Shown here piece after piece: positions 566 to 50,280 of a DNA stretch of 64,000 bases; positions within the stretch are counted from its first letter, which is position 1; the number at the start of each line of letters is the position of its first letter. Origin of the DNA: Patescibacteria group bacterium (lineage in GTDB: Bacteria > Patescibacteriota > Microgenomatia > UBA1400 > PJMF01). A program made the position numbers and the translations under genes. The DNA lies in assembly GCA_045541795.1 (NCBI GenBank), contig JAZQJV010000018.1, forward strand, positions 118,236 to 182,235, read 5' to 3'. The notes beneath the pieces are model-generated. The model saw nothing but the letters and a program-made list of their open reading frames with translations, did not search any database and was not told where the DNA came from.

Positions 566-600
566 TCGCAGAGAGTAATGTTTAGTTTTTGTGATGAATT

Positions 601-622
601 ACCCCGACCTTACGGTCGGGGT
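601..622 (+). terminator. GC hairpin after the uvrA relic (possible terminator, weak U tract)
   Basis: accccgacc / ggtcggggt stem with a ttac loop. Confidence 0.35.
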
Positions 623-834
623 TATGGACAAATGTGATATGAATTATTTTGAACAATTATGTCTACTCAAAATTATAGTGACTACGCCCAGATTAACCTG
701 ATAACACCTATTGAATATGATCACTATTCAATTAGTTTGTTTAGGTTTTATCAATGTGAAAATTAATAAGTTGCCCAGCACGAGTTTGTTATAATCGGCT
801 TTAGGTTAATAATTTGTCTGGTCACCAGGCATAA

Positions 835-1374
835 GTGCCAACATTATTAACTGGAGGTTATATCACTTTTGCCTGGAAATCCATATGCGACCATCATGAC
901 TATAATCGTATTGATTTGCATGCCTTTAGACTGGACAATAGCTTTACTTATACAGTTTCACTTACAGTCAATTATGACAAGGTTAATCTTTTAGAGAAAC
1001 TGCCAGTCTTACCAAAGTTCGAACAATTATTTATAACTTTCAATCAACCACAAATGCTACTGACCGATACTTTATTGTGGCACGCTGATCGTTGTTACCA
1101 ATTTCAGGGACAAACATTCAATTATGTCCTCATCAGAGCACTGGTAAAAGCCAATGGAGAAATTCCCTGGAACGATCAGCTGCTGCTGATGTATGATCCT
1201 GGTCCTCTTCATCTAAGTAGCTCGAAAATAGATGATAGAAGTACTTTAATTTGTCGTGCTATAGATGACCTTAACTTGGAGCTCAAACAAAAACTTAAAA
1301 TGAATTTTACACCGATACACAGACGTAAAAATAAATTTATTAAATTTGATAAACAAATTATACTATCGACATAG
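835..1374 (+). CDS. hypothetical protein (possible OmpR/CadC-like winged-helix at the C-terminus)
   Basis: 179-aa ORF with a GTG start in the AT-rich region. The stretch ..RSTLICRAIDDLNLELKQKL...FIKF weakly resembles a Trans_reg_C recognition helix and wing. Confidence 0.4.
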   Translation: MPTLLTGGYITFAWKSICDHHDYNRIDLHAFRLDNSFTYTVSLTVNYDKVNLLEKLPVLPKFEQLFITFNQPQMLLTDTLLWHADRCYQFQGQTFNYVLIRALVKANGEIPWNDQLLLMYDPGPLHLSSSKIDDRSTLICRAIDDLNLELKQKLKMNFTPIHRRKNKFIKFDKQIILST

Positions 1375-1469
1375 ACTCACTTAGCTGGAGTTACTCTAGG
1401 CTCAGTTTTTGCTTCTCTGGTAGTTTAATATCCCTGTCTAGAAATTAGTCGAGGCTATTAAACGACCGC

Positions 1470-1679
1470 ATGAGACAGAGCACAATAGTAGTACCAGCTC
1501 GCACCGACATCGGGAAAAAATATCGTACTAGCTACGACCCTATATCAGAGCAGGACGTTCACGATTTTATTGCTGCCGTTAAGGCAGATAGTGGATGGGT
1601 ATTGAAGTTTGATGAGGCAAAACAAACAGCCAATGATTTAATAGAGTTGGCCAAATTAGTCAATAAATATCAGGAATAA
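1470..1679 (+). CDS. hypothetical small protein
   Basis: 69-aa ORF; no recognisable motif. Confidence 0.35.
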   Translation: MRQSTIVVPARTDIGKKYRTSYDPISEQDVHDFIAAVKADSGWVLKFDEAKQTANDLIELAKLVNKYQE

Positions 1680-1735
1680 CTGTCTTAAAAGTCTTGCATT
1701 TTTAATCAATTTGTGATATAAAGACCACATTAATT

Positions 1736-2824
1736 ATGACAAACACAAAAAAGATCCAGACAGTTACTAGTAACGATATGTCGATGTCTAATGATCAAGA
1801 GTATCGGGAATGGTTAGTCGACTTAAAAACAAGATATCAACATAGTCGCATTAAAGCATCTATAAAAATTAATTATGAGGTCATTTTTTATTACTGGTCT
1901 GTTGGTCGTGACATTGTGATTAAAAAAGCCGAATCAAAATGGGGTAGTGGTTTTTATGATAATTTGAGTCGCGATCTACGACGAGAATTACCTGGTATAC
2001 AGGGATTATCAAAAACAAATCTCAAATACATGAAGTACTTTTATGATCTTTTTCCAGATGTGTTTACTGATAAGTCAATTCGTCCACAAGTTGTGGACGA
2101 ATTGGAGCAAATACCTTGGGGACATATCCGATATATTATAGATAAGTGTCGCGGTGATCAACAAAAGGTGATATTTTTCATCAATAAGACCGTGGAAAAC
2201 AACTGGTCGAGAGCAATGCTGCTAAATTTCCTGGATACAGATCTTTACGAGAGGCAAGGGAAGGCGATTACGAATTTTACCAATAAGTTAGCTTCGCCTC
2301 AAGGAGAATTAGCTCAACAGCTTACCAAAGATCCTTACAGTTTTGACTTTCTTACTATGAGAGAAAACTATCAAGAAAAAGAGCTTAAGGATGCCCTGAT
2401 TGCTAATATTGAAAGATTTCTGCTGGAACTTGGCAAAGGTTTTGCTTATATGGGACGGGAATACCGCTTACAAATCGGTGAAACTGAAAAATTTATAGAT
2501 ATGCTCTTTTACAACACTGTCCTGCGTTGTTACGTGGTAGTAGAAGTCAAAGTGGAGAAATTTGAATCCGGACATTTAGGGCAATTGGGATTGTATGTGA
2601 CCGCGGTTAATCATCAGCTCAAAAACGAAACTGACAATCCCACTATCGGTCTGTTGATTTGCAAGAGCAAAGAGAATGTGGTGGCGAAATACTCGCTAGA
2701 AAGCATGGCGGTGCCGATCGGAATATCAGAATATGAGTTGCAAAAAATCTATCCCGCTGATTTCAAGAGTAGTTTGCCAACGATAGAGGAGATAGAGAAT
2801 GAGCTGGCTGATAATAACGATTAG
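1736..2824 (+). CDS. YhcG/DUF1016 family PD-(D/E)xK nuclease (paralog a)
   Basis: KAESKWGSGFYDNLSRDL, PWGHIRYI, FAYMGREYRLQIGE..FIDMLFYN..CYVVVEVK (D..E.K core), PTIGLLIC. A TTGCAT-17-TATAAA promoter lies upstream near 1693-1721. Confidence 0.85.
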   Translation: MTNTKKIQTVTSNDMSMSNDQEYREWLVDLKTRYQHSRIKASIKINYEVIFYYWSVGRDIVIKKAESKWGSGFYDNLSRDLRRELPGIQGLSKTNLKYMKYFYDLFPDVFTDKSIRPQVVDELEQIPWGHIRYIIDKCRGDQQKVIFFINKTVENNWSRAMLLNFLDTDLYERQGKAITNFTNKLASPQGELAQQLTKDPYSFDFLTMRENYQEKELKDALIANIERFLLELGKGFAYMGREYRLQIGETEKFIDMLFYNTVLRCYVVVEVKVEKFESGHLGQLGLYVTAVNHQLKNETDNPTIGLLICKSKENVVAKYSLESMAVPIGISEYELQKIYPADFKSSLPTIEEIENELADNND

Positions 2825-2845
2825 TAAAAATTAAGGTAATAACAT

Positions 2846-4273
2846 ATGTTCACACCTTTTGGCAAGAATCTCGACAATCTAAGTTTTGAAGACATTCAAA
2901 AATTTTGCGATAAAGGTGTTGCTGAAAATATTTATATTGATTACAAGAAAGAAATTAATCAGAAGAATGATCATCTTGCCAAAACTATTGCGTCCTTTGC
3001 TAATACACATGGCGGCTGGATAATAATTGGAGTAGAAGATAAGAATGATCGTCCAAACTCTCCATTTAACGGGATTGACTATACAGATGGAATAGAGTCT
3101 AGTATAACTACTATAATTGTTGACAATATTTATCCATATGTCGAAGTTACATCAAAGGTTATTGTCAACCATGATAATAAAAGAGCTTTTGTTGTAGTGT
3201 ATGTCCCAGAAAGTCATAAAACACCACATTGGATTAACAGCAGAAGGGATCTTTATATTAGAGCTAATACTAGAACAAAAACTGGCAGAGATGATATTAA
3301 GAATAAAAACGAAGACTTGGATATTTACGCCACTTCTGAAAATTGGGAATTCTTAAGAAATAAAAGGGAAAGGTCTCAACAACTGGCAATAGAATTGGAA
3401 ACAGCTTTAAATCGTTTGTTTCTATCATATAAAGATAAAGAAGAACGTTTGTGGTATCAAAATAACGAAAAAGTTAAAAATAATCCGTCGCTGCAAAGTA
3501 TAATATCTGAAGATATGGATACACTCGACTGTGCAGATCCAAGTATCACAACAATTAAAAATAGGCGAGAGTTCAGAAGCGAATGTTATCATGATAACAT
3601 TAGTATTATTGTCCAGCCAGTTTTCCCATCATACGCTATTTCTTCACCGCGTGATTTGAGAGAACACTATTCGTCTAACAGCGGTGCAAACCTCACTAAC
3701 GTTGGTTCACTTGACGAAAACTACAAACTTGATTATTTTCAAAACGGGATAGTAACTTTTTTTACTCCCGACAATAAGACAGGCAACCATTGCGCATTTT
3801 TTGCTCAAGACATCTTTGGTTCGTGCATGGTAAAACACAAGATAGTTCAACACAATCGAAAGAAGATTGATAACTACCAGGGTTATGAAGTGCCGCCAAA
3901 TAGTAACATTATTGACTTTGAATACTTGATAGTTTATATTGAACAATTTTTAAAATATGCATCAGTTTTTTATAAACAAATTGGTTATTTAGGCGAACTT
4001 AGACTTAAGGTGGTCATGAATGTGCCAGAATGGTCATATATGATAATTCATGATTCAACCAAGAATTTTCCGCTTGCATATAGTAATTCTGATAAATATT
4101 TTCTTTGGGAGAAAGTTTTTATTAATGCTGATTTTGTTAACGATCAAGAACGAAATAAAATACTAAATACTATGTATGAAAGTATTGGATTCTTTTTTAA
4201 TTGTGACGAAATTCCTAAACAAATAATTAATAATCTGAGAAAGAATCCAAATAATGCTAATGAGCAACTTTAA
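2846..4273 (+). CDS. AlbA_2 (Schlafen-like, putative DNA-binding) domain protein with an uncharacterised ~330-aa C-terminal region
   Basis: The N-terminus reads ENIYIDYKKEIN...LAKTIASFANTHGGWIIIGVED...FVVVYVPES...YIRANTRT, which fits the AlbA_2 pattern. It starts 21 nt after the DUF1016a stop. Confidence 0.75.
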   Translation: MFTPFGKNLDNLSFEDIQKFCDKGVAENIYIDYKKEINQKNDHLAKTIASFANTHGGWIIIGVEDKNDRPNSPFNGIDYTDGIESSITTIIVDNIYPYVEVTSKVIVNHDNKRAFVVVYVPESHKTPHWINSRRDLYIRANTRTKTGRDDIKNKNEDLDIYATSENWEFLRNKRERSQQLAIELETALNRLFLSYKDKEERLWYQNNEKVKNNPSLQSIISEDMDTLDCADPSITTIKNRREFRSECYHDNISIIVQPVFPSYAISSPRDLREHYSSNSGANLTNVGSLDENYKLDYFQNGIVTFFTPDNKTGNHCAFFAQDIFGSCMVKHKIVQHNRKKIDNYQGYEVPPNSNIIDFEYLIVYIEQFLKYASVFYKQIGYLGELRLKVVMNVPEWSYMIIHDSTKNFPLAYSNSDKYFLWEKVFINADFVNDQERNKILNTMYESIGFFFNCDEIPKQIINNLRKNPNNANEQL

Positions 4274-4297
4274 CTTCCCGTCTCAAAAACTCCCCAA

Positions 4298-4364
4298 TCA
4301 TGCTATAATCAACCTCAAGTAACTGGGTTCGGATTTCCCGCCAGAAACCACCAAAAAATAGGAT
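4298..4364 (+). repeat. promoter-plus-leader repeat, copy 1 (TGcTATAAT 4301-4309; conserved 29-nt core 4324-4352)
   Basis: The core tgggtTcggatttcccgccagaaaccacc differs at one base from the copy at 6859-6887. Both cores lie 14 nt after their -10 box. No ORF follows this copy. Confidence 0.7.
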
Positions 4365-4423
4365 ATTGAAGTACGCAAATTATATCCATATAAAAACGAT
4401 ATTTTAAGCAAATTATTTGGTAT

Positions 4424-5590
4424 TTAATCATTATTGTTAATGTTTAAAAGTAATTGTAATCTTTTCATGATTTCATCGAATGTTATTATTATATTTCTGG
4501 AAACACTCTTTCTGAATAAGTTGAACGATCTTTCTTGTTCTTCAAGAAGTCCTGATTTGTTACCGATAATAATTATTCCTAATGGATCAAGAGCATTCAA
4601 GCGGTTATCTTCATAATCTTTTCCAATAAGAGTTGAAAAATTATCACTCGCAATTCTAATTTGATTTTCTAGTTGAACTATCGCACCACTCAATTCGTCA
4701 GACATGGAATAGCACACATTCTCTCCAACGGCATCTGAATTGCCTCTATATTGATGTCCAATAATGGCACTTTGCGGTGTTTTAATTTCAATAACTGCAA
4801 AGCTTTTATTTGAAAGATTTTGCAAAAGAAAATCAGCGGCGACTCCTCCTTGGCCGTTTCTTCCACGACTGTTCTTTCCTCCTAGATATGTTTCGCCATT
4901 CAAATAACAGACTGGACAATAAAACAAACTCTCAAAAATCCACTGATTTTCTGTGAAGAATGCTTGCCAAAAGTTTTCTTTTTGGTTATTATTCATATTT
5001 TTCGCAATTGTATTAATTGCATTCTGCAATTTGGCTAGTAATATAATATTTTCTAATACTCTGATGTTTCCTTTTCCTAAATCTCTTAACTTGGTAATAA
5101 CCATTTCCTTATTTTTAATATCGCCAATTTGCAATAAAACACTTTCTATATTTCCTTCTCCAATAGATATTGTTGTGGTTCCAAATTTAATACCGTTTTC
5201 ATTTAGAGTCTCTCTAATTAACGGTAAATGCTCAAAGAGATTTTTCATGGCTTCACCATCAAGGTTGAGATCATAAAATTCTCCTTTTCTTAACTTAGTA
5301 ACAGATAGGCCTTTATAACTTTGCCAGTTGTCATTAATTCCTTTTCTTTCCCATCTGAAACCTCCTCGCAATGGTTTGTCAGTTTGAGATGGGTCTACCC
5401 ACTTTGGGTAAAAAAGTAATCTTGTGCTTTCAGTTTCTTTTAGTATAATTGGGGAAATATCAGCGGTTTTATTGGAAGTAGATTTTATTGTTATATCTTT
5501 TGATTCTTTCTGTTTGTCTGTAAATCCCTTGCGAGGTAGCGTGAAATCTATTTCTCCTGAAATATTGCTAAAATCATATTTTGGAGTCAT
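4424..5590 (-). CDS. sduA: Shedu-like DUF4263 (SduA-type) PD-(D/E)xK nuclease
   Basis: The C-terminal half reads NFWQAFFTENQWIFESLF...GVAADFLLQN...FAVIEIKTP...SDELSGAIVQLENQI, which fits the DUF4263 pattern at ~390 aa. The track start is a TTG at 5602. The ATG at 5590 preceded by GAAAG is more likely. Confidence 0.7.
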   Translation of the reverse strand: MTPKYDFSNISGEIDFTLPRKGFTDKQKESKDITIKSTSNKTADISPIILKETESTRLLFYPKWVDPSQTDKPLRGGFRWERKGINDNWQSYKGLSVTKLRKGEFYDLNLDGEAMKNLFEHLPLIRETLNENGIKFGTTTISIGEGNIESVLLQIGDIKNKEMVITKLRDLGKGNIRVLENIILLAKLQNAINTIAKNMNNNQKENFWQAFFTENQWIFESLFYCPVCYLNGETYLGGKNSRGRNGQGGVAADFLLQNLSNKSFAVIEIKTPQSAIIGHQYRGNSDAVGENVCYSMSDELSGAIVQLENQIRIASDNFSTLIGKDYEDNRLNALDPLGIIIIGNKSGLLEEQERSFNLFRKSVSRNIIITFDEIMKRLQLLLNINNND

Positions 5591-5608
5591 GGTGGCTTTC
5601 AATCAAAA

Positions 5609-6736
5609 TTACCTATTTGCTTCTAGCAACTTTTTCTCTATCTCCTCTATCGTCGGCATCGTTCCTTCCACCTTTTGCGGATACAACTTCTCCAGTTCGT
5701 ACTCCGAAATTCCCAATGGTTGATTGCTAGATTCCAAAGCATACTGAGCGATTAAATTATCTTTTTGCTTGCAAATGAGCAAACCGATAGTCGGATTATC
5801 TCGTCCTTCTTTTTGTAAAAGGTGATTGCAAGAAACCACGTAACCGCCAAGTTGCCCCAAATCGGCAAAATCAAATTCGCCAATTTTCACTTCAACCACA
5901 ACGTAACAAGACAACTGTAAATTATAGAAAAGCAAATCAATAAATTTTTCTTTCTCGCCGATTTGCAGTCGATACTCTTTTCCCACATACGCGAAGCCCG
6001 TGCCAAGTTCTAATAAAAATTTGGTTATATTTTCTAGCAGGGCATCTTTTAATTTACGTTCATTGTATTTATCGGTAATACCAGTAAAAGCAAAATTATA
6101 TGGATCTTTTGTTAATTCCTGAGCTAAATCGCTAGTAACATTGGGTAAGGTTTTGCCAAAATTCGTCAATGCTTTTCCTCGTCGATCATAAAGATCGGTT
6201 TCAATAAAATTGAGTAGCATATCTCGGCTCCAACCATTTTCTATTGTTTGGTGAACAAAAAAGAGTGCTTTTTGTGGTTCTGTTTTGAATTTATCAATTA
6301 ACAGCTTATGATGGCCCCACGGAACAGAAAAAATGTCGCTTTCAATTTTCTCAATGACTTGCTGAGTAATTACATTACTTTCTATTTGCTCCCCAACTTG
6401 GGGAGCAATTTCGAAATATTGATGGTAAAGTATATAAAAGTTTTTCATGTACAACAAATTTGTCGGCGAAAAACACGTTGCGTCAGGATTGAGAGTTTTA
6501 AGGTCTCGGCTGAGATTTTTCATGAAACCACTGCTCCATTTACTTTCGGCTTTCATTACCACAATGTCTCTGCCCAAATCATAGTAAAAACGAAGCATTT
6601 CCCGATTAACTTTTACTGCTGCTCTAACTTGGCTCAAGCGATAACGAGAAGAAAGCTTCCCAATCCACGAGGCATAATTTTCATCTAGAATTGTTAGTGA
6701 CTGAACTTGTTTTGCAACCTGTTTTTTCTCTGTCAT
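5609..6736 (-). CDS. YhcG/DUF1016 family PD-(D/E)xK nuclease (paralog b)
   Basis: KAESKWSSGFMKNLSRDL, PWGHHKLL, FAYVGKEYRLQIGE..FIDLLFYN..CYVVVEVK, PTIGLLIC. It is colinear with 1736-2824 over its whole length. Confidence 0.85.
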   Translation of the reverse strand: MTEKKQVAKQVQSLTILDENYASWIGKLSSRYRLSQVRAAVKVNREMLRFYYDLGRDIVVMKAESKWSSGFMKNLSRDLKTLNPDATCFSPTNLLYMKNFYILYHQYFEIAPQVGEQIESNVITQQVIEKIESDIFSVPWGHHKLLIDKFKTEPQKALFFVHQTIENGWSRDMLLNFIETDLYDRRGKALTNFGKTLPNVTSDLAQELTKDPYNFAFTGITDKYNERKLKDALLENITKFLLELGTGFAYVGKEYRLQIGEKEKFIDLLFYNLQLSCYVVVEVKIGEFDFADLGQLGGYVVSCNHLLQKEGRDNPTIGLLICKQKDNLIAQYALESSNQPLGISEYELEKLYPQKVEGTMPTIEEIEKKLLEANR

Positions 6737-6815
6737 AGTGGCTATTACTTATAGCACAATAACGCTATTTTGTCAATACTGATAATTAATTATTATTGGC
6801 ATTTATTTTCAATTC

Positions 6816-6903
6816 TTGCAAAAACAACTTCATACTGTTATAATCAGTTTCAAATAATTGGGTGCGGATTTCCCGCCAGAAACCACCCCAAAAAGATGGG
6901 ATT
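6816..6903 (+). promoter_or_regulatory. promoter-plus-leader repeat, copy 2 (TTGCAA 6816-6821, 17-nt spacer, TGtTATAAT 6836-6844; core 6859-6887)
   Basis: Consensus-like promoter followed by the conserved core tgggtGcggatttcccgccagaaaccacc. Possible helix GGGTG 6860-6864 / CACCC 6884-6888 and inner hairpin GCGG-atttc-CCGC. It precedes the zinc-ribbon/TM2 gene. Confidence 0.6.
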
Positions 6904-6922
6904 ACTGCGATGAAAGTGAAAC

Positions 6923-7256
6923 ATGACAGATGAAAAAACAAAATACTGTAAACATTGCGGTTCGCTTATTGATGTAGAATTGCATAATATGCCCGAAGTG
7001 TGGCAAGCAGGTCGAACAAGTAAAAGCCGAGCTTCCAAATGTAGTGATCAATAACAATAACACCAATTCGAATATAAACTATGCTGGTGCTGTGGGGAGC
7101 GGGCGGCCTATCAATAAGTGGATAGCTTTGGGTTTATGTCTTTTTCTGGGCATATTCGGTGCTCATAAGTTTTATGAAGGAAAGATTGGCATGGGAATAT
7201 TGTATTTGTTTACATTTGGTTTGTTTAGTCTTGGTTGGTTTTTAGATATTTTTTAA
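6923..7256 (+). pseudogene. zinc-ribbon + TM2 domain protein, interrupted by a +1 frameshift
   Basis: Frame A from ATG 6923 gives MTDEKTKYCKHCGSLIDVE... Frame B gives ..CIICPKCGKQVEQVKAELPNVV.. and continues into the 7044-7256 ORF with the TM2 motif (INKWIALGLCLFLGIFGAHKFYEGK). The two CxxC halves of the ribbon therefore sit in different frames, and a TAG at 6975-6977 blocks frame B upstream. Confidence 0.6.
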
Positions 7257-7355
7257 TCCTAACAAAGCCTAATCCTTATTACATATAATACTTTTACATT
7301 TGCGTTTTTATTATAACTACGTTATAATAACACAAACTTTAAGGAAAATATAAAC

Positions 7356-8429
7356 ATGAAAAATCATCGAAAATTCCATCCTCGCATTATTGTCAATATC
7401 ATCTGTCTTTTTTCATTGGCATTATCTCACATTATTTTTTCGCTACCGATTAAAATAATTGATACAGTTTATGCCGTCGAGCGTGAAACTGTCACTGTGA
7501 GCCGTGTGATTGATGGTGATACAATCGTTTTGAATGATGGGCGAAAGGTTAGATATATTGGAATTGATACACCAGAAACAGTTCATCCAACAAAAAATGT
7601 GCAGTGTTTTGGGAAACAAGCCAGTAACAAAAATAGAGAATTAGTCCTTGGTAAAACTGTGGAACTGGAAAAAGATATCAGTGAAACTGATCGCTATGGA
7701 CGTTTACTCAGATATGTATATTTGGATGGCGTCATGATTAATCATAAATTAGTCGCTGAAGGTTATGCCACAACCGTAACCTATCCTCCAGATGTTAAGT
7801 ATAAAGAAGAATTCTCCAAAGCTCAGGCGCAGGCAAGACAAGCAAGACTTGGGCTATGGGGTAATGAATGCAACGAAAGCAGCAGCACTCACGCATCCTC
7901 AAACAACAATGCTAGCTCAAATACAAATAAAATGGATTCGTCAAGCACATCGTCATCATCTCAAAACAACAAAACTCAAAATGACCATGAAGGCAACCAA
8001 GCTTCTACTCAACCAACTAACACTAGCGCACAAAAATGTCCATCAAATTGTAGTGAGGCCAAAAGCATGGGAATGGTTAACATTACACCGTCGCATCCAT
8101 GCTGGCAAGAAAAATTTGATGGCGATAAAGATGGCGTGGGTTGTGAAAGTGACAACCGGTCTACCAATACAAAAACAACTAACAAATCCAATAATGTCAA
8201 TAAACAGACCAGTGCTACGCCGGCACCCACGCCAGTGCCAAGTCGCGCCCCAACGCCAGAACCAACCCCACCGCCTACGTCAGTGCCAGCTCCAGCTGCG
8301 CCAACCCAATCTTGTCCAAATAACTGTACCCAAGCAAAGGCAATGGGAATGGCCAATATGACACCTTCTCATCCTTGTTGGCAATCTAAATTTGACCGAG
8401 ATAAAGACGGTATTGGTTGCGAAGACTAG
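7356..8429 (+). CDS. secreted/anchored thermonuclease (SNase family) with two C-terminal Excalibur Ca-binding domains
   Basis: VIDGDTIVL..GRKVRYIGIDTPE...RYGRLLRYVY...LGLWG, plus two copies of CP.NC..AK.MGM.N.TPSHPCWQ.KFD.DKDG.GCE separated by a PT-rich linker. It has an N-terminal hydrophobic anchor. Confidence 0.85.
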   Translation: MKNHRKFHPRIIVNIICLFSLALSHIIFSLPIKIIDTVYAVERETVTVSRVIDGDTIVLNDGRKVRYIGIDTPETVHPTKNVQCFGKQASNKNRELVLGKTVELEKDISETDRYGRLLRYVYLDGVMINHKLVAEGYATTVTYPPDVKYKEEFSKAQAQARQARLGLWGNECNESSSTHASSNNNASSNTNKMDSSSTSSSSQNNKTQNDHEGNQASTQPTNTSAQKCPSNCSEAKSMGMVNITPSHPCWQEKFDGDKDGVGCESDNRSTNTKTTNKSNNVNKQTSATPAPTPVPSRAPTPEPTPPPTSVPAPAAPTQSCPNNCTQAKAMGMANMTPSHPCWQSKFDRDKDGIGCED

Positions 8430-8438
8430 AAAGTAAAA

Positions 8439-9119
8439 ATGTCACAAAAAGATAATAGCAAACATTCTTGCAGAATAATCATGGCCGCATTGCTAGTGCT
8501 TCTAAGCATTGCATTGCTGCATAAATCTTTTTTTGCTGCCGCCTTCACTATCTGCTACGCATATCTCATCTCGCCACTATCAATTCAATTGGTAAGTAAA
8601 ATATGTAAGAAAGAAAATGAGAAATGGCTATATTCAACCATGACTTTTATTTTTGCTCTTTGCTGGATGACCACAATTCAAACTGGTCAGCCACAAATGG
8701 ATAATGTGTTAACGCAAAATAGTGAAAAAAACGCATCGCTAGAGAATGCGTCAACACAAAATAATGAAAAAATCGCTTCACTAGAAAAAGAGCTCCAATC
8801 AGTTAAGAACGAAAGAGATGAAATTCAAGCAAACAACCAAAAAAGAGCCATTTCAGCTGCCAAATCATATTTGGAATACAGTCCAATGTCGAGCCGAGAG
8901 TTGATTAAGCAACTCGAGTTAGAAGAATTTTCTCATGAAGACGCAGCATACGGTGTAGAGCATGCTGATATCAATTGGAACGATCAAGCATCACGGTCAG
9001 CAGTCCTCTTTATTGAGTTTGCTAATCCGTCAACCGAAGAATTAAAAAAACAACTTGAGTACGAAGGTTTCACAAGCAACGAAATAAAATTCGCCATTGA
9101 GCATAATAGTAATGGGTAA
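8439..9119 (+). CDS. membrane protein with two Ltp-type (host cell surface-exposed lipoprotein) repeats
   Basis: AISAAKSYLEYSPMSSRELIKQLELEEFSHEDAAYGVEH and ASRSAVLFIEFANPSTEELKKQLEYEGFTSNEIKFAIEH fit the Ltp repeat pattern. It also has N-terminal TM segments and a short coiled-coil repeat. Confidence 0.7.
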   Translation: MSQKDNSKHSCRIIMAALLVLLSIALLHKSFFAAAFTICYAYLISPLSIQLVSKICKKENEKWLYSTMTFIFALCWMTTIQTGQPQMDNVLTQNSEKNASLENASTQNNEKIASLEKELQSVKNERDEIQANNQKRAISAAKSYLEYSPMSSRELIKQLELEEFSHEDAAYGVEHADINWNDQASRSAVLFIEFANPSTEELKKQLEYEGFTSNEIKFAIEHNSNG

Positions 9120-9148
9120 ATGACTCTATTGCTTCCAGTAAGGAAAGT

Positions 9149-9490
9149 ATGCCATCTACCAAAAGTTACCTTAATCACCTTCTAACTCAATTCTCGCAGT
9201 TGGATGATATTTCTTACCGCTCGATGATGGGGGAGTATATCATTTATTTCAAAGGCAAAGTAGTAGGTGGAATTTATGATGATCGATTTTTGGTCAAGAC
9301 AACAAAATCTGCACTCGCGTTGATGCCAAACACAAGCAAAGAATTACCATATCCCGGTGCGAAAGAAATGTTGTTGGTAGACGATACGGGAGACAAAGTA
9401 TTTTTACGCGAGCTGCTGACCGCGATATATGAGGAGCTGTCAGTGGTAAAGAAAAAAGAAAGCACATTAAAACGTTTATTAACGAATTGA
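9149..9490 (+). CDS. TfoX N-terminal domain protein
   Basis: L..L..L..ISYRSMMGEYIIYFKGKVVGGIYDDRFLVK fits the TfoX_N pattern. Confidence 0.65.
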   Translation: MPSTKSYLNHLLTQFSQLDDISYRSMMGEYIIYFKGKVVGGIYDDRFLVKTTKSALALMPNTSKELPYPGAKEMLLVDDTGDKVFLRELLTAIYEELSVVKKKESTLKRLLTN

Positions 9491-9502
9491 CATTCATTGT
9501 CC

Positions 9503-10165
9503 TCATCTTTGACGTCTCGCTCTCTCCATATACTCTCTTTGCACCCGCATAAATAATTCCTTATCTGCCAAAAGCGTCCGGATCTCATTTAAAAAACGCT
9601 CGTACTCCGGATCAGAAAAAAAGTATTTCGCATAGCCGCCCTCACCAAATTTTTCTTTCAGGTGTTGCCAACTTCTCACAAACAATTGCTCGTCACTAAA
9701 ATCCGGATGTAAATTTTTACCATACACAAAACTTCGATACAAACAATCTTCTACGCTCGTATTTCTGTCCGCCGTGGACACAATTTTCCCGTACACGCTC
9801 CGGGGCTCGTGATTGCTTGAAGCACGATGATCTTCGATTGCCTCTTTAATCAGTTTTAATTGTTTACCGCTAAAAAAATCAGGCAAATGCTTATCCTCAC
9901 TCATCATCCGCGCAGAAATAATCTCATGCTTGGCTGGATCAATGTGATGTCCCAGATCATGATAAGCAGCCACAGTGTAGACAATGTCTAAGTTAACGTC
10001 GGTCAGTTTTTGCGCCAAGTTAATACTTCTTTCAATGACATATTTAATGTGTTTTAAATTATGAGCTGGCTCATTTTGAGCGTACTGCGGGAAAACATTT
10101 TGCTGGATGTATGTTTGTAATTTTCTATTGACGGTAGGATAAAAATTATTTTCTAACATAAACAT
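9503..10165 (-). CDS. HD-domain phosphohydrolase
   Basis: AAYHDLGHHID and STADR motifs. The start is moved to the ATG at 10165, which lies 6 nt after a TATAAT box (plus-strand 10172-10177), so the gene is probably leaderless. Confidence 0.75.
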   Translation of the reverse strand: MFMLENNFYPTVNRKLQTYIQQNVFPQYAQNEPAHNLKHIKYVIERSINLAQKLTDVNLDIVYTVAAYHDLGHHIDPAKHEIISARMMSEDKHLPDFFSGKQLKLIKEAIEDHRASSNHEPRSVYGKIVSTADRNTSVEDCLYRSFVYGKNLHPDFSDEQLFVRSWQHLKEKFGEGGYAKYFFSDPEYERFLNEIRTLLADKELFMRVQREYMERARRQR

Positions 10166-10269
10166 TACTATATTATAACACGAGCAGACATTTTGAAAGC
10201 TCAAAAATATAGCGTCCAGTTTTTACAACTTTCGCTCATTTCACCTTACCGGTATGGTATAATACCCCT

Positions 10270-14125: not shown

Positions 14126-15724
14126 CTATTTGGCCCCAAGTTTAGCTTCACTAGTGGCTGGTTTTTGCTCCCACAAAATAAACTCTTCTCCCCGCTGCAG
14201 GATTTGATAATTACTCAGCAATGCTGCCGGGAAAAAATAACCTTCATCATCTATCGTATAAGCAGCATACTCATATTCGGGAGCGTATTCATGCTGCATC
14301 TCACTGCTACCGTAGCGTGTTACTATCAGGTCTGGTGTCCGCTTGGCTATCATTTCGATGATCTCACTAAATACTTCTGGCGCCCCGGCGCGTGATAGTG
14401 TTGGCACCATGTAGTAACGCCCAGCATTGACAGCATTTGTCCCGTGGAAAAACGTATACCAACTATACGGATACAAAGCCAAAAGTTTTGGCGCGGGCGC
14501 ATAGCTCATGATGGCCGTCATGACATCTTGTTTTTCGGCGTAGATAAAATCCCTCGTGCTCTGGTAATTACGACTCAAAACAGCTGCTGTCGCCAGCACG
14601 CAGATCACACTATAAGCGGCAAATTCTGGCAAGTGAGGTTGCAAAATTTTCTCGTCCAATACCAATATTAGCATCAGCGCCAAAATCCCCATCACCCAAA
14701 ACCAATCATAAAAATGCCCGAAAACACCGTTAAAAACGATCCCGCCAACCAACAATGAGATCAGCAACACTTTAAACTGTACCGGGCACTTTTTCAAAGT
14801 TAAAAATAGCACGCTCACGAGTAAGTACACGAGCGACCAGGTGTGATTGGCTGGCAAATTCCACATCAAAGCCAATTGCTCCATGATTTTGAGGATTTTA
14901 GCCACCAAACTACCACCGGCTTGATTACCATAAGCACGAAAGGGAAGAAGAAAATAATGATAAATCAAATCAGCCCAAGCTCCATGAACGGTATACCAGG
15001 CAGCAACCAACAAACACACGCCCAAAAAACCGCCACCAAAGCCGGCCCAGAGCCTTATTTGGTCGCCCGCGCGCCGCTTAGAAATCCAGCCTAGGTAACC
15101 CAGTGTCACCAAAAAAATCCCAATATCTGTGTACTTACACCAAAAAACAACTCCAGCTAGCAAGCCCAAAATGACACTAGCTACCAATTTAGACTTGCTA
15201 GGCAATTTGGTCCAGTTTTGCGCCAGGAGCACACATCCCAAAGTGCATGTTAAAAGCAAACTCCCGATCGAACCCAAAGCGGGTGCAATCGGCTGTGGCG
15301 GTAGACCTAGATATACCAATACTGTGGCTAAAAGCGCCAGAACCAGCCGATATTTTTCTTGTACCCGCACTGACACTAAAATTTGGTGCAGCAAAAAGAA
15401 ATTGACTAAAGCGAGACTGCATTGCACCAAAAACATCCCCCGGAAGACATCACCAGGGTAAAGCAGACCTATAAGACCCCACCAATACATCCATATCGGG
15501 CCTTTCATGTCAAAAAAGTCCCGGTGTGGGAGCTCTCCACGCCGGATAAAATCACTATAAGTAGCGTAAATGCCAAAATCATCACCCAGACCAAAAACTG
15601 ACTGCAACGGCGAGAAAGGACTGGCAAGCGTCACCACGCCTAAAATAGCAAAGCAAGTAATGAAAATACCGAAACACAGCCGAAATTTTGTGTTTTCTTG
15701 CCAATAAGTAATTAGTTTGTGCAT
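14126..15724 (-). CDS. polytopic membrane protein, probable GT-C fold glycosyltransferase
   Basis: More than 10 predicted TM stretches, with an acidic loop DDFGIYATYSDF after TM1. The start is moved to the ATG at 15724 (MHKLITYW), 7 nt after TGaTATAAT on the minus strand. Confidence 0.5.
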   Translation of the reverse strand: MHKLITYWQENTKFRLCFGIFITCFAILGVVTLASPFSPLQSVFGLGDDFGIYATYSDFIRRGELPHRDFFDMKGPIWMYWWGLIGLLYPGDVFRGMFLVQCSLALVNFFLLHQILVSVRVQEKYRLVLALLATVLVYLGLPPQPIAPALGSIGSLLLTCTLGCVLLAQNWTKLPSKSKLVASVILGLLAGVVFWCKYTDIGIFLVTLGYLGWISKRRAGDQIRLWAGFGGGFLGVCLLVAAWYTVHGAWADLIYHYFLLPFRAYGNQAGGSLVAKILKIMEQLALMWNLPANHTWSLVYLLVSVLFLTLKKCPVQFKVLLISLLVGGIVFNGVFGHFYDWFWVMGILALMLILVLDEKILQPHLPEFAAYSVICVLATAAVLSRNYQSTRDFIYAEKQDVMTAIMSYAPAPKLLALYPYSWYTFFHGTNAVNAGRYYMVPTLSRAGAPEVFSEIIEMIAKRTPDLIVTRYGSSEMQHEYAPEYEYAAYTIDDEGYFFPAALLSNYQILQRGEEFILWEQKPATSEAKLGAK

Positions 15725-15817
15725 ATTTGCTATTATATCATACCAAGTATTCTTCACGCTTAGCAATTAGCGCTCGCTTCAAACTACCCAAGATAGTCGC
15801 TTTCGCCCGGTTGGGTC

Positions 15818-20389: not shown

Positions 20390-22195
20390 ATGCAGTTTAG
20401 TAAATTAAGCCAGACGCTACTTGACATCGAAGCAATCAACGCGCGCTTGCAAATCACTCAGATTTTATCAAAACTCTGGCCGCAGCTGGACGAGCGTGAA
20501 TTATGGCAAGCTGCCAACCTTATCCAGGGACAATTACAACCGCCCTATGAACAGCTTGTTTTTAGTCTGTCCGTGAAAATGATCGCCCGCGCTCTGGTGC
20601 AGCTGGCGCTCGCCAATGGTGGCTTGGCTGGCGGCGTAAGTGTGGATTTATTTGGGCAAGCTGATGAACAGTCACTTACTGATCAAATTAAAGCGATACA
20701 TCGCCGTTTTGGTGACTGGGGCGAGACGGCAGCGTCAGTGCACACCGAGCTTTTTGGTGCAAAAGGCTCTAATTTGAGCATTAATGATGTGTATACCAGA
20801 CTGACCGCGATTGCCAAGATCAGTGGCGACGGTTCACAACAGGCTAAGCTTGATGCCTTGGTCTCTTTACTGTCTGCAATTGATGCCTCGAGTGCTAAAT
20901 TTGTGATCAGGATGGTGATCGGCAAACTGCGTTTGGGTTTTTCTACGATGACGATTTTAGACAGCCTTTCGTGGGCGGTTTGCGGTGATAAATCCGAAAG
21001 CAAACTGCTAGAAAGCGCCTGGCAAAAAAAAGCTGATGTTGGCTTACTGGCGGCCGCCTACTTGCCACTGCAAAACCTCACGCCGCTCAAGCGCCGGGAA
21101 AAATTAGCTGCAGACTATCACGCGAGCGTGGGCGTACCTTTAGTGCCGGCTTTGTGCCAACGGCTCAATTCTACCACTGACATCATCGAAAAGGTGGGCG
21201 CTACCATCGCTGAGCCTAAATATGATGGCATGCGCATCCAAATTCACGTCCGCCGTCAGGGTGGGCTGCAAGTTTTTGCTTTCACCAGGAGTTTGGAAAA
21301 TGTTTCTCACATGTTTCCAGAGCTACAAGAATTTGCCAGTAGCCTCGATGTGGATGCCGCCATTTTTGACTCAGAAGCTGTGGGCTTTAATGCTCACACC
21401 GGGCAGATGTTGCCTTTCCAAGAGACCATTAGTCGGCGTCGGCTTCACGACGTCGATCAAAAAGCTCAGTCCATCAAAATGAAATTTTTCATTTTTGACG
21501 TTTTACTTTTAAATGAGCAGGAACTCATCACGACGCCCTTGGCTGAGCGCAAAAAACTACTGCGCCAAACAGTTGCCGATAGCGACGTCGCGCAGGTGAC
21601 GAGTTTTATCGTCACTAGTGATCCCGGACAGCTGCGCCAGTTCCATGAACGCCAGCTCCAGCTTGGTCTGGAGGGGATGGTGGCCAAAGGGGAGAGCAGT
21701 GATTATCAAAGCGGCCGCAAAGGCTGGCACTGGGTCAAGATTAAAGAAGCAGAAGGTACTCGTGGCAAGCTCAATGACACCCTTGATTTAGTAGTCATGG
21801 GTTATTATTATGGTCAGGGCCGGCGGCATGATATGGGCGTGGGAGCGATTCTTACAGGCGTGTTGGCAGATAATGGTGATATTGTCACGATCAGCAAAAT
21901 CGGCACCGGCTTTACTGATGAAAATCTTTCTTCCTTCCACTCTCAAGCAGAAAATTACCGTACAGATACCAAGCCCACCGACTACCAAGTAGGCAAGCAG
22001 CTGATACCGGATGTGTGGTTGAGGCCGCACCTAGTAGCCGAAATTGCTGCTGACGAGCTTACTCGCTCTACCATGCATACAAGCGGCTACGGCCTCCGTT
22101 TCCCCCGCATTATCCGGTGGCGAGACGATAAAACCGCTGCTCAAGCTACCACCCGCAGCGAGCTGGCATCCATTACTATAGATAAAGGAGATTAA
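20390..22195 (+). CDS. lig: ATP-dependent DNA ligase (Lig1/archaeal-type three-domain architecture)
   Basis: Adenylation motif AEPKYDGMRIQIH (KxDG), then FDSEAV, EGMVAK and WVKIK motifs. The ~230-aa N-terminal region is consistent with a DNA-binding domain. Confidence 0.85.
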   Translation: MQFSKLSQTLLDIEAINARLQITQILSKLWPQLDERELWQAANLIQGQLQPPYEQLVFSLSVKMIARALVQLALANGGLAGGVSVDLFGQADEQSLTDQIKAIHRRFGDWGETAASVHTELFGAKGSNLSINDVYTRLTAIAKISGDGSQQAKLDALVSLLSAIDASSAKFVIRMVIGKLRLGFSTMTILDSLSWAVCGDKSESKLLESAWQKKADVGLLAAAYLPLQNLTPLKRREKLAADYHASVGVPLVPALCQRLNSTTDIIEKVGATIAEPKYDGMRIQIHVRRQGGLQVFAFTRSLENVSHMFPELQEFASSLDVDAAIFDSEAVGFNAHTGQMLPFQETISRRRLHDVDQKAQSIKMKFFIFDVLLLNEQELITTPLAERKKLLRQTVADSDVAQVTSFIVTSDPGQLRQFHERQLQLGLEGMVAKGESSDYQSGRKGWHWVKIKEAEGTRGKLNDTLDLVVMGYYYGQGRRHDMGVGAILTGVLADNGDIVTISKIGTGFTDENLSSFHSQAENYRTDTKPTDYQVGKQLIPDVWLRPHLVAEIAADELTRSTMHTSGYGLRFPRIIRWRDDKTAAQATTRSELASITIDKGD

Positions 22196-37212: not shown

Positions 37213-38655
37213 TTAATCTTCCACCACGTATGCCACCAGCTCATCACCAGCTTGGAAGTCGAGCTTTTTTTGCCGGAAAGTGATACCACCCTCAGTTGGC
37301 GCTTTAAAATGATCCACTTCGAGTTTACCGTGCATCATTGACGAGACAATGGGATCGGCGATGATCTGTCCGTCACGCTTGAGATGGTATTTATCATTTT
37401 TCTTGAGTTCACCACTGGTCACTTTCACGCCCGCAATCCGCAAGCCTTTCATCTCAAAAATTTCTTGGATCGTAGCCGTGCCCGTCACTACCTCATCAAT
37501 GGTTGGCTCCAAAAGCTTGAGCATCTTTTTTTGGATGTATTCAATCAACTCATAAATAATGTCATATGATTTAATCTTGACACCATGCGCTTTGGCCACT
37601 TGGGTGATATGTGGACTGACTTTCACTTGGAAACTTAAAATCTTTGCCCCGGCAGTGTGTGCTAATTCTACATCTGTATCCGTCACTTCGCCCACACCTT
37701 GGCTAATGATCTCGACACTGTCCGGATCGCAGTTGGCAGCAATTGCCTCCAGCGTTCCCTGGGTGTCAGCTTTGAGGATAAATTTGAGCTTGTTGCTATC
37801 GCCTAAAACAGAAAAATCAATTCCGGCATAAGGATCATTACTGACACTTTGCTTCTCCACTGCTGGGCTGTGGTCTTGAGGATGGCACGTGACGATCGAA
37901 CCGACGGCAGGCACATCTTTGAAACCAATTATTTGTCCCGGCTCACCAGGAAGAAGTTGCTGTACCGGTTTACCAAAATCATTGAGGATGTTTTTGACTT
38001 TACCACTCGTCTCTGCCGTGTAAATATCATCACGCACTTTGAGCGTGCCCGACTGGACGATAATATTAGCGACCGCTCCCCGGCGTGGATCTTTGGCCGA
38101 CTCAATCACTACAGCCTGGAAGTCATCATTTGGATCGGCTTGCAGCTCTAGCAAATCAGCCGTAATGACCAAAGTTTCCAATAGCTTGTCAATTCCTTTG
38201 CCGGTTTTGGCGGATATTTCTACTGCTTCGGTGTCGCCGCCAAAATCAGTCACCACTACATCATGCTCGGCCAGCTGTGACTTGACGTTGATCACATTAA
38301 TGTCTGGTAAATCAATTTTATTGATGGCTACCACCACCGGTACACCAGCCGTTTTGATGTGACGGATAGACTCGATGGTTTGCGGTTTGACGCCATCATT
38401 AGCGGCCACTACTAGTACTACAATATCCGTGATCGCTGCACCTCGCTCCCGCATCGCGCTAAAAGCAGCGTGGCCTGGTGTATCAATAAAAGTCAGCTGA
38501 GCATCGCCCACCTTTACCTGGTAAGCGCCGATATGCTGAGTGATCCCCCCTTGTTCTTTGGCCGTGAGCCGCGAGCGGCGCAAGAAGTCCAAAAGCGTCG
38601 TCTTACCGTGGTCTACATGGCCCATGATGGTGATGACTGGGGATCTTTTGCTCAT
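37213..38655 (-). CDS. infB: translation initiation factor IF-2, short form lacking the N-terminal region
   Basis: It begins directly at the G domain: [34 protein letters not shown]. Only 480 aa. Its ATG overlaps the nusA TGA (ATGA). Confidence 0.9.
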
Positions 38656-40089: not shown

Positions 40090-40563
40090 ATGAAAAAATG
40101 GAGTGTGATCGCAGTTTTAATTTTGAGCCTGTTTGCGGGACGGCCAGCACATGCTGCCCCTTACGAAAGTTGGAAGAGTTCCAAAATGTGCACAGGCGCT
40201 AAAGACACGCTTTCTGAAGACGTTGCCACTATCGCTGGTATCGTTTGCCTGATCGCCAATGCCTTAAATGCCGTCCTGACGCTGTTTTCCTTCGTCGGCT
40301 TCCTCATGTTTGTGTATGCCAGTTTTATGCTCATGATCTCTGGCGGTAATCCCAGCGGCTTTGAAACAGCGAAAAATACCTTTACTTACGCAATTTTTGG
40401 CTTCGTGCTGGCTTTATCATCATTTGTGATCATCAATCTTATTTCTTATTACACTGGCCTCAATAGCTTCTTTGTCATCAAATTCTTGCCCAATACTATT
40501 TCTGGCAGCGCCAGCAGTGGCGGTACAGGCGGTAGCGGTACGGGAGGTACAAGCGGGCCATAA
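40090..40563 (+). CDS. small TrbC/VirB2-like (CPR T4SS-pilin-type) membrane protein, paralog 2, with a Gly/Ser/Thr-rich tail
   Basis: Signal peptide MKKWSVIAVLILSLFAGRPAHA, then two TM helices flanking MISGGNPSGFETAKNTF, and the tail GSASSGGTGGSGTGGTSGP. Confidence 0.6.
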   Translation: MKKWSVIAVLILSLFAGRPAHAAPYESWKSSKMCTGAKDTLSEDVATIAGIVCLIANALNAVLTLFSFVGFLMFVYASFMLMISGGNPSGFETAKNTFTYAIFGFVLALSSFVIINLISYYTGLNSFFVIKFLPNTISGSASSGGTGGSGTGGTSGP

Positions 40564-40564
40564 T

Positions 40565-43500
40565 ATGCGCATTGATAAATTCTTACCGGCAAAACGTTGG
40601 CAAACTGTTATCATTGGGGTCAGTTTGGTTTTTGGCTGCATGATGTCGCTGCAAAATTTGCACCTAGACCTAGTTTCTGACGTCTGGAGTGCGCAGTATC
40701 AGGATGTTTATAGTCAAGTGATGAGTATTTTCCAGTCACGAGGTGAGACCATCCCTACTAATGTCGCCGCCGACATCATCGAGCGTTCTGGCGGTGATCA
40801 AAATCAAGCTATAGCTACTCTGGAAAAGTATCTCAACGTCTACAAAGCTTTGCAAGCGCGTAATCCTGATGTCTCTTCTCTAGTCATCAGTTTGATCGCC
40901 AAACAGTACCCAGATAATTACTCACAGGCCAGCACAGCTTTGTCGCAGACGGTCTCGACAGCTAAGCAGATCCAGGACTACCAAAATATAAATACTATTG
41001 CGGCGCAAATTGTGGCCGCTTTAGGGATTAATAATAGTTTCACGCAGACACTCTCAGACGCTTATGACGTCGTCAATAATGCCAGTAATATGGGCCAGCA
41101 GATGAACGTCAACAATATCGCCGCTCAAATTTTGTCTGCGCTCGATCTTACCGGAGAACTATCCTCGGGTTTTGGCAGCCAGGCTGATTTGCAAAATACG
41201 CTTCAAAGCATGACTAGATCGTCCCTCTTGCAAAGTCAAGACGCTAAGGATGTCCTCGGTGCCTTAGACATTTTCACGCCGGGTAATTTCTCGTCTGATG
41301 CCGGCAGCGTGAGTAAAATTGCCAGTGATCTTTTAGGCGGAAAACTTTCAGACACGGTCAAAAGTGTGGTAGATAAAGAAATTGCCGAAAGTTTGGGCGC
41401 GCTTAATCTAGGTAGTTTGTCTGGTCTTAGCGAAGGTAAAGGGAATTTTTCTGGCATTCTTGAGCAGGTGACATCTAAAACTGCCGGTGAAGCTGGCAAA
41501 TACAAGGATGTCTACGAAACCGTCACCAAAGGTATGAGCACTCAGGACATCGTCAAAATGGGCACCGACAAAATCAAAGACAGTATCTTAGATAATTCTA
41601 CCCTCGACCAGGAAAAAGCCGCTCAGGAAACCAAAAAAGAACTTGACCAAGAGGCAAAAAAAGCCGTAGACGAGGAAAAAAAACTACAGGATGAAGGATT
41701 GATTGATCCGTCGAGCGTACCAAGCAGTAGCCCTTCGCCTTCTTCAACTCCCGATCCTTCAGCCAGTCCTTCACCATCACCTTCCGCAAGTCCTTCTCCT
41801 GGTGCCAGCCCGTCGCCAGGGGCGAGCCCGAGTCCCTCTCCGTCTGCTAGTCCGTCACCGAGCGCTTCGCCGTCGCCGTCAGCGTCACCGAAAGCAACTG
41901 AATACATCAGAAGTGGTGCACAGGGATCCTTTATCACCGCTATCATAGATAAACTCAGAATGAGCGGCACGGCCGAAAATATTAAGGAAGGTTTTGCTGC
42001 TAAAATGATCGCCAAGAATTTATCGCTGGAGGGATATGAAGCCTATCATATCAAAACTGTCAGCCGTTTGCAGCCCTATATGAATTTTTCTCATCGCCGT
42101 AACAATGTAGATTTTAGCCAAGCCAAAGTACCCCTCATGCGCAATAGTAACTACAAACCTGAACGGCTTAATTCTGCCGAAAATTATTACGGCTATAATG
42201 CCCGGGTAGGAGTGAATGACACTGATATCCTTACTGAGTCAGCCTGGGTCGCCAAAATGTCGCAGCCTGTCAAATGCAGCCTCAAAGCCGCCAATCTTGC
42301 CTATATCGTGCGCACTTGCGACATTCTTCATGAAGACACATGCGAAGGTCTATACCTGACCGCTGATGGCAGTGAAACCATCAAAGATACTAAGATCAAA
42401 GTCCATGATTTGGCTCTTGCGGTGACAGCCATTCTCATCACTGATGGCAGCCAACGTGACGAGTTAATCAATGCGGTGGCGCTCGCTTTGGCGACGGGCA
42501 AAGGCGATCTTAGCGGCATCATGGGACAAGTAACCAATATTATTAATAGTATTGGCGGTGAGAATTCAGATGTACTGTCGCGTTTGCTGGCTATGGCTTC
42601 AGATAAAGTCATGGAACCTATCTATGATAACCGGATTCCTTTTTGTGAGACACTTTATAATACTCCAGCCACAGCGGCTACGGATGAGACGGGCTTACTG
42701 CTAGAAATGGCCAAAGGCAACATCCAAGCGGAGGATATGGGCAAAATTTATCTGCGCTGGGCGATGGAAAAATTGGACTTTTACCTGGCACGTGAATACC
42801 GCACTGCATACCTAGTGCAAACTACAAGAATCTGCCCGGTACGTCGGCAATTTATCTGCTCTAAATCCTCACCCGTATATAAGTATGCACCAGCACCCAC
42901 AGGCACCTGCTTAGTACAACTCCCCTGTATACCTGGTATCACCCCAGATCAGGTGCGTGTATATCCATTCAAAATCCCAGATCTTTTCACCAATAAGAAT
43001 TTTTGCAAAACGTCTGATCTAGAATATCCTGGGCTCTTGAATGACGTCAAATGTGAGCCCTCTGAGCAATTCCAATATGCAGACATGATACAAGAATATC
43101 ACGATCCGGCACTTTTACAAAAAAATTTCCTCATGAATATGGAGCAGATCCGCGCTGAACGTGAAGAGTTTTTAGCAAAACGCAAAACTCGCGCCCAGCA
43201 CTCTGCCGAAGCCTGTACGGCCAATAGTGCTACCACTCTTGCCAAAATGCAAGAGGCCGACTTAACATGCACCGACAAAAATGTGCTTAGCGGTGATCTG
43301 ATTGACTGTGAAAACTGCAATGGCGAAGCCAGACGAGTCAAAGCGGCTCTAGTGAAAGTCATCAACGGTGCCATCAAACATGGCGAACTTTACAAAATCG
43401 AAAATCCCAACGGCAACTCGCCGGGTACTGATGATGTCAGCGGCGGGCTTAGTAGTTCCGCCATTACCACTTCTGCCGTGAATCCGCTCGAACCAGCTAT

Positions 43501-50089: not shown

Positions 50090-50280
50090 ATTGGCAAATA
50101 TACACACAATTCTTTCAAATTCTTTCATCTTTTTACCGCAAAATATGCGGTAATAACCAATTTACCTGCGTTCACCAGCAATATTCATCAGTCAAAATCT
50201 ATCATAATTTGCTACCACCACCTGCAAAAAATACCAATATAACAGCACATTTTTCTCTTATAATGACTAAAAGTGACGGC

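Follow-up and report, generated by a model that had tools for sequence, protein, structure and literature searches.

A predicted Type 1A Shedu nuclease (SduA) encoded beside YhcG-family nuclease genes in a probable Patescibacteria genome

Results

The sduA gene and its neighbourhood

The window, that is, the whole 64 kb stretch of DNA analysed in this study, contains the sduA gene and the following neighbouring features (positions are those of the window).

1-565: UvrA-like C-terminal fragment, broken by stop codons and frame changes
1736-2824, plus strand: yhcG-1, YhcG/PDC-S02 nuclease gene, convergent with sduA
2846-4273, plus strand: Schlafen/AlbA_2-domain gene, downstream of yhcG-1 (the pair spans 1736-4273)
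4284-4358, plus strand: direct repeat copy A, downstream of the sduA stop (extended 4280-4365)
4424-5590, minus strand: sduA, 388 aa plus stop, predicted full-length Type 1A Shedu nuclease (Pfam, PADLOC, PDB 8TI8)
5609-6736, minus strand: yhcG-2, DUF1016_N plus YhcG_C PDDEXK nuclease (Pfam; PADLOC candidate PDC-S02)
6819-6893, plus strand: direct repeat copy B, upstream of yhcG-2 (extended 6812-6902)
6923-7256: gene with zinc-ribbon and TM2 domains, with a frameshift near 6975-6981
7356-8429: membrane-anchored secreted SNase with two Excalibur domains, in the low-GC block
8439-9119: Ltp-type protein resembling superinfection-exclusion proteins, in the low-GC block

The open reading frame and the 388-residue minus-strand product given for sduA in an earlier note, made from the letters of the DNA, were confirmed, with the ATG at 5590 and the stop codon at 4424-4426. 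The peptides quoted there, WQAFFTENQWIF, ADFLL, AVIEIKTP, SGAIVQLENQI, MTPKYDFSNISGEIDF and GFRWERKGINDNWQSYKGL, were all found in the translation. A start at an alternative in-frame TTG, at 5602, would lengthen the product by four residues. Between 5590 and about 5440 no ATG, GTG or TTG was found in frame; SduA therefore cannot begin later, and a downstream start removing the N-terminal extension was rejected. The reading frame is intact and every catalytic and sensor residue is kept. In an alignment with 25 relatives, SduA agreed with 71 of the 74 columns conserved in at least 88% of them, and the three differences are conservative.

Fifteen SduA models of PADLOC matched the protein, the best being PDLC00399 (230 bits, E 1.3e-68), whereas no NCBIfam model matched. 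A phmmer search against all PDB chains retrieved the B. cereus SduA chain 8TI8 (E 1e-36), with both halves collinear and a chain length of 382 aa against 388 aa for the window protein; the nuclease-only construct 8TI9 was matched at E 1.7e-20. The following parts were delimited in the protein.

Residues 1-30 (5501-5590, minus strand): N-terminal extension, predicted disordered and specific to the window protein
Residues 31-135 (5186-5500, minus strand): SduA_N sensor domain of the sPC4/Whirly type, including R57
Residues 136-200 (4991-5185, minus strand): largely helical linker (predicted helices, alignment to the 8TI8 linker)
Residues 201-388 (4427-4990, minus strand): DUF4263 PD-(D/E)xK nuclease domain (PF14082, motif mapping, Foldseek)

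The nuclease domain

The Pfam profile SduA_C (PF14082, formerly DUF4263) matched residues 203-374 with positions 2-158 of its 159, at an E-value of 9e-22 and a score of 78.4 bits, the gathering cut-off being 27. The assignment to DUF4263 is thus far beyond chance and, together with the PADLOC and 8TI8 matches, confirmed the earlier identification of the protein as a Shedu/DUF4263 nuclease. The active-site motifs of the B. cereus enzyme have been assigned to E204, D249, E264/K266 and Q295, and its linker to residues 118-170 (Gu et al., bioRxiv 10.1101/2023.08.10.552793). The numbering of chain 8TI8 was taken as 2 above that of the native B. cereus protein, since the published motif residues are then in register with the phmmer alignment. 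With this offset, E205, D253, E268/K270 and Q306 of the window protein align with the four B. cereus motifs in the above order, and in the alignment of 26 sequences (SduA and its 25 relatives) they are invariant or nearly so. The PD-(D/E)xK active site is therefore complete, with the E of motif I, the D of motif II, the ExK of motif III and the Q of motif IV all present. The core segments picked out in the earlier note were the right ones: ADFLL carries the motif II D253, IEIKTP the motif III E268 and K270, and SGAIVQLENQ the motif IV Q306. The alignment with characterised SduA that the note had suggested thus located the catalytic D, E and K and placed them on B. cereus residues. Neither absence of a DUF4263 match nor loss of catalytic residues was observed, and the central claim of that note stands. 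In addition, the residues that dock the motif II loop in B. cereus (V248/Y252 with Y307/I310) are conservatively kept here as A252/L256 with F318/L321.

The N-terminal domain

The N-terminal part of about 190 residues, which the earlier note could not match to anything, gave clear matches in several searches. The hmmscan search proposed there for DUF4263 returned, besides SduA_C, the Pfam profile SduA_N (PF21407) on residues 37-136, with positions 1-101 of the 102 in the profile aligned (E 7.2e-12; score 45.8 bits, cut-off 27). By phmmer, residues 30-152 aligned with residues 4-127 of chain 8TI8 (E 1.6e-10). R57 aligned with R29 of the B. cereus protein and is nearly invariant among the 26 sequences. 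When residues 1-150 were searched against 1.84 billion representative proteins, 256 representative clusters were retrieved at E <= 0.001; among the 150 matches listed, nearly all begin at query residue 27-36 or thereabouts, the earliest at 19, and most full-length matches have 345-400 aa. Most relatives start about 35 residues later than the window protein in the alignment. In agreement with this, no match to residues 1 to about 30 was found by Pfam, by phmmer against PDB, in the representative-cluster search or in the alignment with relatives, and this short disordered tail is the only unmatched part of SduA. The best identity to relatives reached 55% in the N-terminal domain and 58% in the nuclease domain; as these values are alike, no domain swap has taken place.

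In B. cereus, the N-terminal domain has been described as an sPC4/Whirly-like sensor, by which Type 1A Shedu is defined; this class is larger than any other (1,684 of 7,687 homologues). R29, a conserved residue on its putative nucleic-acid-binding face, abolishes defence when mutated (Gu et al., bioRxiv 10.1101/2023.08.10.552793). On the strength of its B. cereus-type N-terminal domain and the retained arginine, the window protein is classified, by sequence, as Type 1A Shedu.

Predicted structure

The AlphaFold model of full-length SduA had a pLDDT of 74 and showed strands within residues 31-91, a long helix thereafter (112-131), a largely helical linker with predicted helices at 148-155, 158-170 and 176-197, and the nuclease domain. 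Residues 1-30 were disordered in this model (pLDDT 34-40). When residues 1-150 were modelled alone, the pLDDT was 81 and the topology was that of the full-length model, the sensor domain consisting of four main strands and a helix, as in the published sPC4/Whirly-type domain. Thus the structure prediction that the earlier note had recommended for the N-terminal part was carried out, on the full length and on residues 1-150, and yielded this known topology instead of a novel fold. The nine best Foldseek matches in the PDB were all Shedu chains, 8TI9 and 8TI8 from B. cereus followed by 8PS4 and 8PS5 from E. coli; the best match had an E-value of 2e-10, a probability of 1.00 and a target-normalised TM-score of 0.79.

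Relatives and Type I R-M context

A total of 76 SduA homologues were found, all but a few with both Pfam domains. Most of the closer ones have about 350 aa, and the nearest is only 54% identical. The nearest relatives (42-54% identity) come mostly from MAGs of Saccharibacteria, Paceibacteria and similar groups. In species-representative genomes, 11 loci with a relative were detected; their labels include Saccharibacteria/Saccharimonadales (five loci), Paceibacteria, Parcubacteria and Peregrinibacteria, the remaining ones being "uncultured bacterium", a "Gammaproteobacteria" MAG and an archaeon. A phage-borne origin of sduA was rejected, as only one viral contig carried a relative, at 33% identity.

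Of the 11 genome loci, four are without R-M and seven have sduA inside a Type I R-M operon, as do the three closest metagenomic relatives examined. In these ten distinct loci (L001, L002, L004, L006, L007, L008, L010, L017, L018/L019 and L020/L021) the gene order is hsdM, variable genes, sduA, hsdS and hsdR, followed in most loci by a YgjP-like gene. Where genes were called, sduA overlaps the start of hsdS, and RhuM, DUF3800 or DUF4145 genes often accompany it. L020 and L021 adjoin relaxase/TraG-like genes. Between MAGs assigned to different CPR classes (Saccharibacteria, Paceibacteria and Peregrinibacteria by label), HsdM identity is 78-87%, which suggests that the whole R-M/sduA cassette moves between them and implies its recent exchange. 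Among Shedu genes in general, 602 of 5,499 have been located in R-M loci (Gu et al., bioRxiv 10.1101/2023.08.10.552793). The window protein thus belongs to a Patescibacteria-centred subclade whose other members mostly sit inside Type I R-M operons. The position between hsdM and hsdS/hsdR is true of the relatives but not of the window copy, and tblastn with HsdM, HsdS and HsdR of L001 (E <= 0.01) detected no hsdM, hsdS or hsdR in the 64 kb window. Apart from the R-M operon context, no partner gene conserved across the sduA relatives was found.

The YhcG genes, the direct repeat and the low-GC block

The yhcG-2 gene, encoded on the strand of sduA, ends 18 bp upstream of it, and the two genes probably share a transcript. 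Its paralogue yhcG-1 (53% identical) lies 22 bp upstream of the Schlafen/AlbA_2-domain gene, whose product has about 300 uncharacterised C-terminal residues. In tblastn searches of 12 related loci, a YhcG gene was found within 10 kb on either side of sduA in none of them. YhcG and AlbA_2 were rejected as conserved partners of sduA, having shown no co-occurrence in the 12 loci, and the adjacency in the window is accordingly read as co-location in a defence island and not as a conserved system.

The yhcG-2/sduA pair is bracketed by a direct repeat of about 85 nt, of which the window holds only two copies. Within its 75-nt core, which is 79% identical between the copies, a stretch of 22 nt, GGATTTCCCGCCAGAAACCACC, is shared exactly; the number of such stretches expected by chance is 0. 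At copy B the repeat overlaps with a promoter-like site, TTGCAA-17-TATAAT. A structured RNA or a terminator was rejected as an explanation, the fold z-scores being unremarkable and no terminator-like site being present; no Rfam match to the repeat was obtained, the sole match in the window being a chance-level tmRNA fragment elsewhere. The repeat could mark an insertion or duplication boundary.

All these features lie in a block of about 9.6 kb (positions ~600-10200) with 32-39% GC, against 44-55% beyond it, and its left boundary is at or beyond the window edge. The UvrA-like fragment is probably a decayed remnant at this left edge. In the split TM2 gene the CxxC...CxxC motif continues in another frame, so that it is either a pseudogene or the result of a sequencing error. 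A low-GC block with decayed genes at its edges fits a horizontally acquired variable region or defence island, and sduA probably arrived by horizontal transfer.

The host

Among LepA matches with a lineage name, the nearest were at 65% identity from a Microgenomates-group bacterium, at 64% from a Patescibacteria-group bacterium and at 60% from a Pacebacteria bacterium. Closer LepA matches, reaching 89-90% identity, bear no label but "bacterium", and the identity to unrelated phyla is nearly as high (about 60%). Two of the few lineage-named DnaG matches were from Paceibacterota, at 40% identity. Several relatives of LepA and DnaG are on contigs of 0.9-1.2 Mb. Judged from LepA, DnaG and the SduA relatives, the host is probably a member of the Patescibacteria (CPR).

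In view of these relatives, the remark in the earlier note on a reduced genome is plausible, as far as 64 kb can show. Many bacterial IF-2 proteins have a long N-terminal region. The IF-2 open reading frame of the window (37213-38655) has only 480 aa as listed and, since the list opens each frame at the first start codon that follows the stop before it, it represents a gene without this region; such a short IF-2 fits a streamlined genome. Elsewhere in this bacterial window a three-domain ATP-dependent DNA ligase of archaeal/eukaryotic type (DNA_ligase_A_N, _M and _C) is encoded at 20390-22195. Four large open reading frames, at 14126-15766 (546 aa), 40472-44137 (1221 aa), 44007-45725 (572 aa) and 48254-50128 (624 aa), had no Pfam match at E <= 1e-5.

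Discussion

SduA has the domain architecture, the conserved residues and the fold of the B. cereus enzyme, and its gene is intact. We conclude that sduA very probably encodes a single-protein Type 1A Shedu defence nuclease of the B. cereus kind, a reading against which several points have to be weighed: the identity to that characterised enzyme is only about 25-30%, the N-terminal tail of about 30 residues is peculiar to the window protein, this copy stands outside the R-M operons of its closest relatives, and decayed genes lie in the surrounding block. For the oligomeric state, autoinhibition, activating signal and anti-phage effect we infer from the work on B. cereus, whose enzyme forms a homotetramer in which a docked loop keeps the motif II D249 over 20 Å away from the active site, and is activated by octamer formation; its N-terminal domains have been suggested to detect the DNA that a phage injects, perhaps the single-stranded ends, although the full-length enzyme was not activated in vitro and the activating ligand is unproven (Gu et al., bioRxiv 10.1101/2023.08.10.552793). 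Since the docking positions and 71 of the 74 conserved columns are retained, a mechanism with an autoinhibited tetramer released by the sensor is expected here. By analogy, SduA would assemble into a homotetramer through its DUF4263 domains, in which the nuclease would be kept inactive by docking of the loop with the motif II D253 at a distance from the active site; the retained docking positions are suggestive of such a sequestered loop. The paired sPC4/Whirly-type domains, with R57 on their putative nucleic-acid-binding face, would then sense incoming foreign DNA, possibly its single-stranded ends. Sensing would lift the block, and the completed active site (E205, D253, E268, K270 and Q306) would cut the invader DNA, the host surviving.

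Other readings of the locus were considered. YhcG-2 and SduA might form a two-gene mobile cassette module in which YhcG senses for, or partners, the Shedu nuclease, and which the neighbouring yhcG-1/AlbA_2 pair mirrors. Such a module would agree with the 18 bp that separate the two same-strand genes, with the repeat and its 22-nt exact core on both sides of the pair, and with the position of the 53% identical yhcG-1, likewise just upstream (22 bp) of a different gene. It is nevertheless quite improbable, because none of the 12 related loci has a YhcG gene near sduA, one gene suffices for Shedu in B. cereus and in E. coli, PADLOC keeps the YhcG family as the separate candidate PDC-S02, and the repeat, with just 79% identity and a promoter-like site overlapping one copy, is not necessarily the sign of a mobile element. 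The decay of nearby genes (the uvrA remnant and the frameshifted TM2 gene), the lack of detectable hsdM, hsdS and hsdR in the window and the ten related loci with sduA still inside the hsdM-...-sduA-hsdS-hsdR operon could also be taken to mean that sduA is an orphaned relic that left a Type I R-M operon by transfer and has since lost its function or expression. We hold this to be very improbable in view of the intact frame and of the conserved positions, all catalytic and sensor residues included; moreover, four of the 11 genome loci are likewise without R-M and Shedu is self-sufficient in model hosts.

The earlier note had also taken the N-terminal part of about 190 residues for a previously unrecognised sensor domain, for which residues 1 to about 30, without any match, might speak. 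This idea is extremely improbable, as the N-terminal domain of B. cereus SduA is homologous to residues 30-152 (SduA_N, 8TI8) and its R29 is kept as R57, the domain recurs in 256 representative clusters, and the 30 residues without a match are predicted to be disordered. A bolder scenario, in which Shedu escaped from its R-M operon and joined YhcG in a repeat-flanked CPR cassette, with the N-terminal tail altering the gating of the sensor, is very unlikely; if true, the escaped cassette would represent a new Shedu-YhcG partnership or a regulatory variant specific to ultra-small bacteria.

The gene should be annotated as Type 1A Shedu (SduA), a member of the Shedu class that is best characterised, and not as Shedu with a novel sensor. 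The value of the finding is modest: it is a further example of compact single-gene nuclease defence in a probable member of the Patescibacteria, and it points to a Shedu subclade that moves from one CPR lineage to another as part of Type I R-M operons. Neither the occurrence of defence systems in CPR nor that of Shedu in R-M loci is new to the literature. The earlier note had considered dedicated defence genes notable in an organism of minimal lifestyle; in CPR bacteria, however, a low number of defence systems per genome has been reported together with a high density per Mb (PMC12259885), and a defence gene in a CPR host is therefore no surprise.

Comparison with known systems

The closest relatives of the window protein (42-54% identity) represent the R-M-embedded Shedu already described, encoded between hsdM and hsdS, whereas the window copy sits between YhcG-family nuclease genes with no R-M nearby. 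With E. coli SduA (Type 1B; 8PS4 and 8PS5), a single-gene defence system like the B. cereus type, the protein shares the tetramer-forming DUF4263 core (Foldseek E 4e-9). In E. coli SduA an N-terminal clamp binds dsDNA ends and the enzyme nicks about 13-14 nt from the 5' end (Loeff et al., bioRxiv 10.1101/2023.08.10.552762); its N-terminal fold differs, the window protein matching the B. cereus-type SduA_N instead, and no E. coli SduA chain was retrieved when PDB chains were searched by sequence with the window protein.

The Type 1A Shedu of B. cereus B4264 (8TI8, 8TI9 and 8TIA) differs from the window protein in its host, a Firmicute and not a probable member of the Patescibacteria, in lacking the additional disordered N-terminus of about 30 residues, and in standing outside the subclade that is mostly embedded in Type I R-M operons. 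It is, however, the best structural match by Foldseek, and the two proteins have the same three-part architecture, nearly the same length, the residues of motifs I-IV and the essential N-terminal arginine in common.
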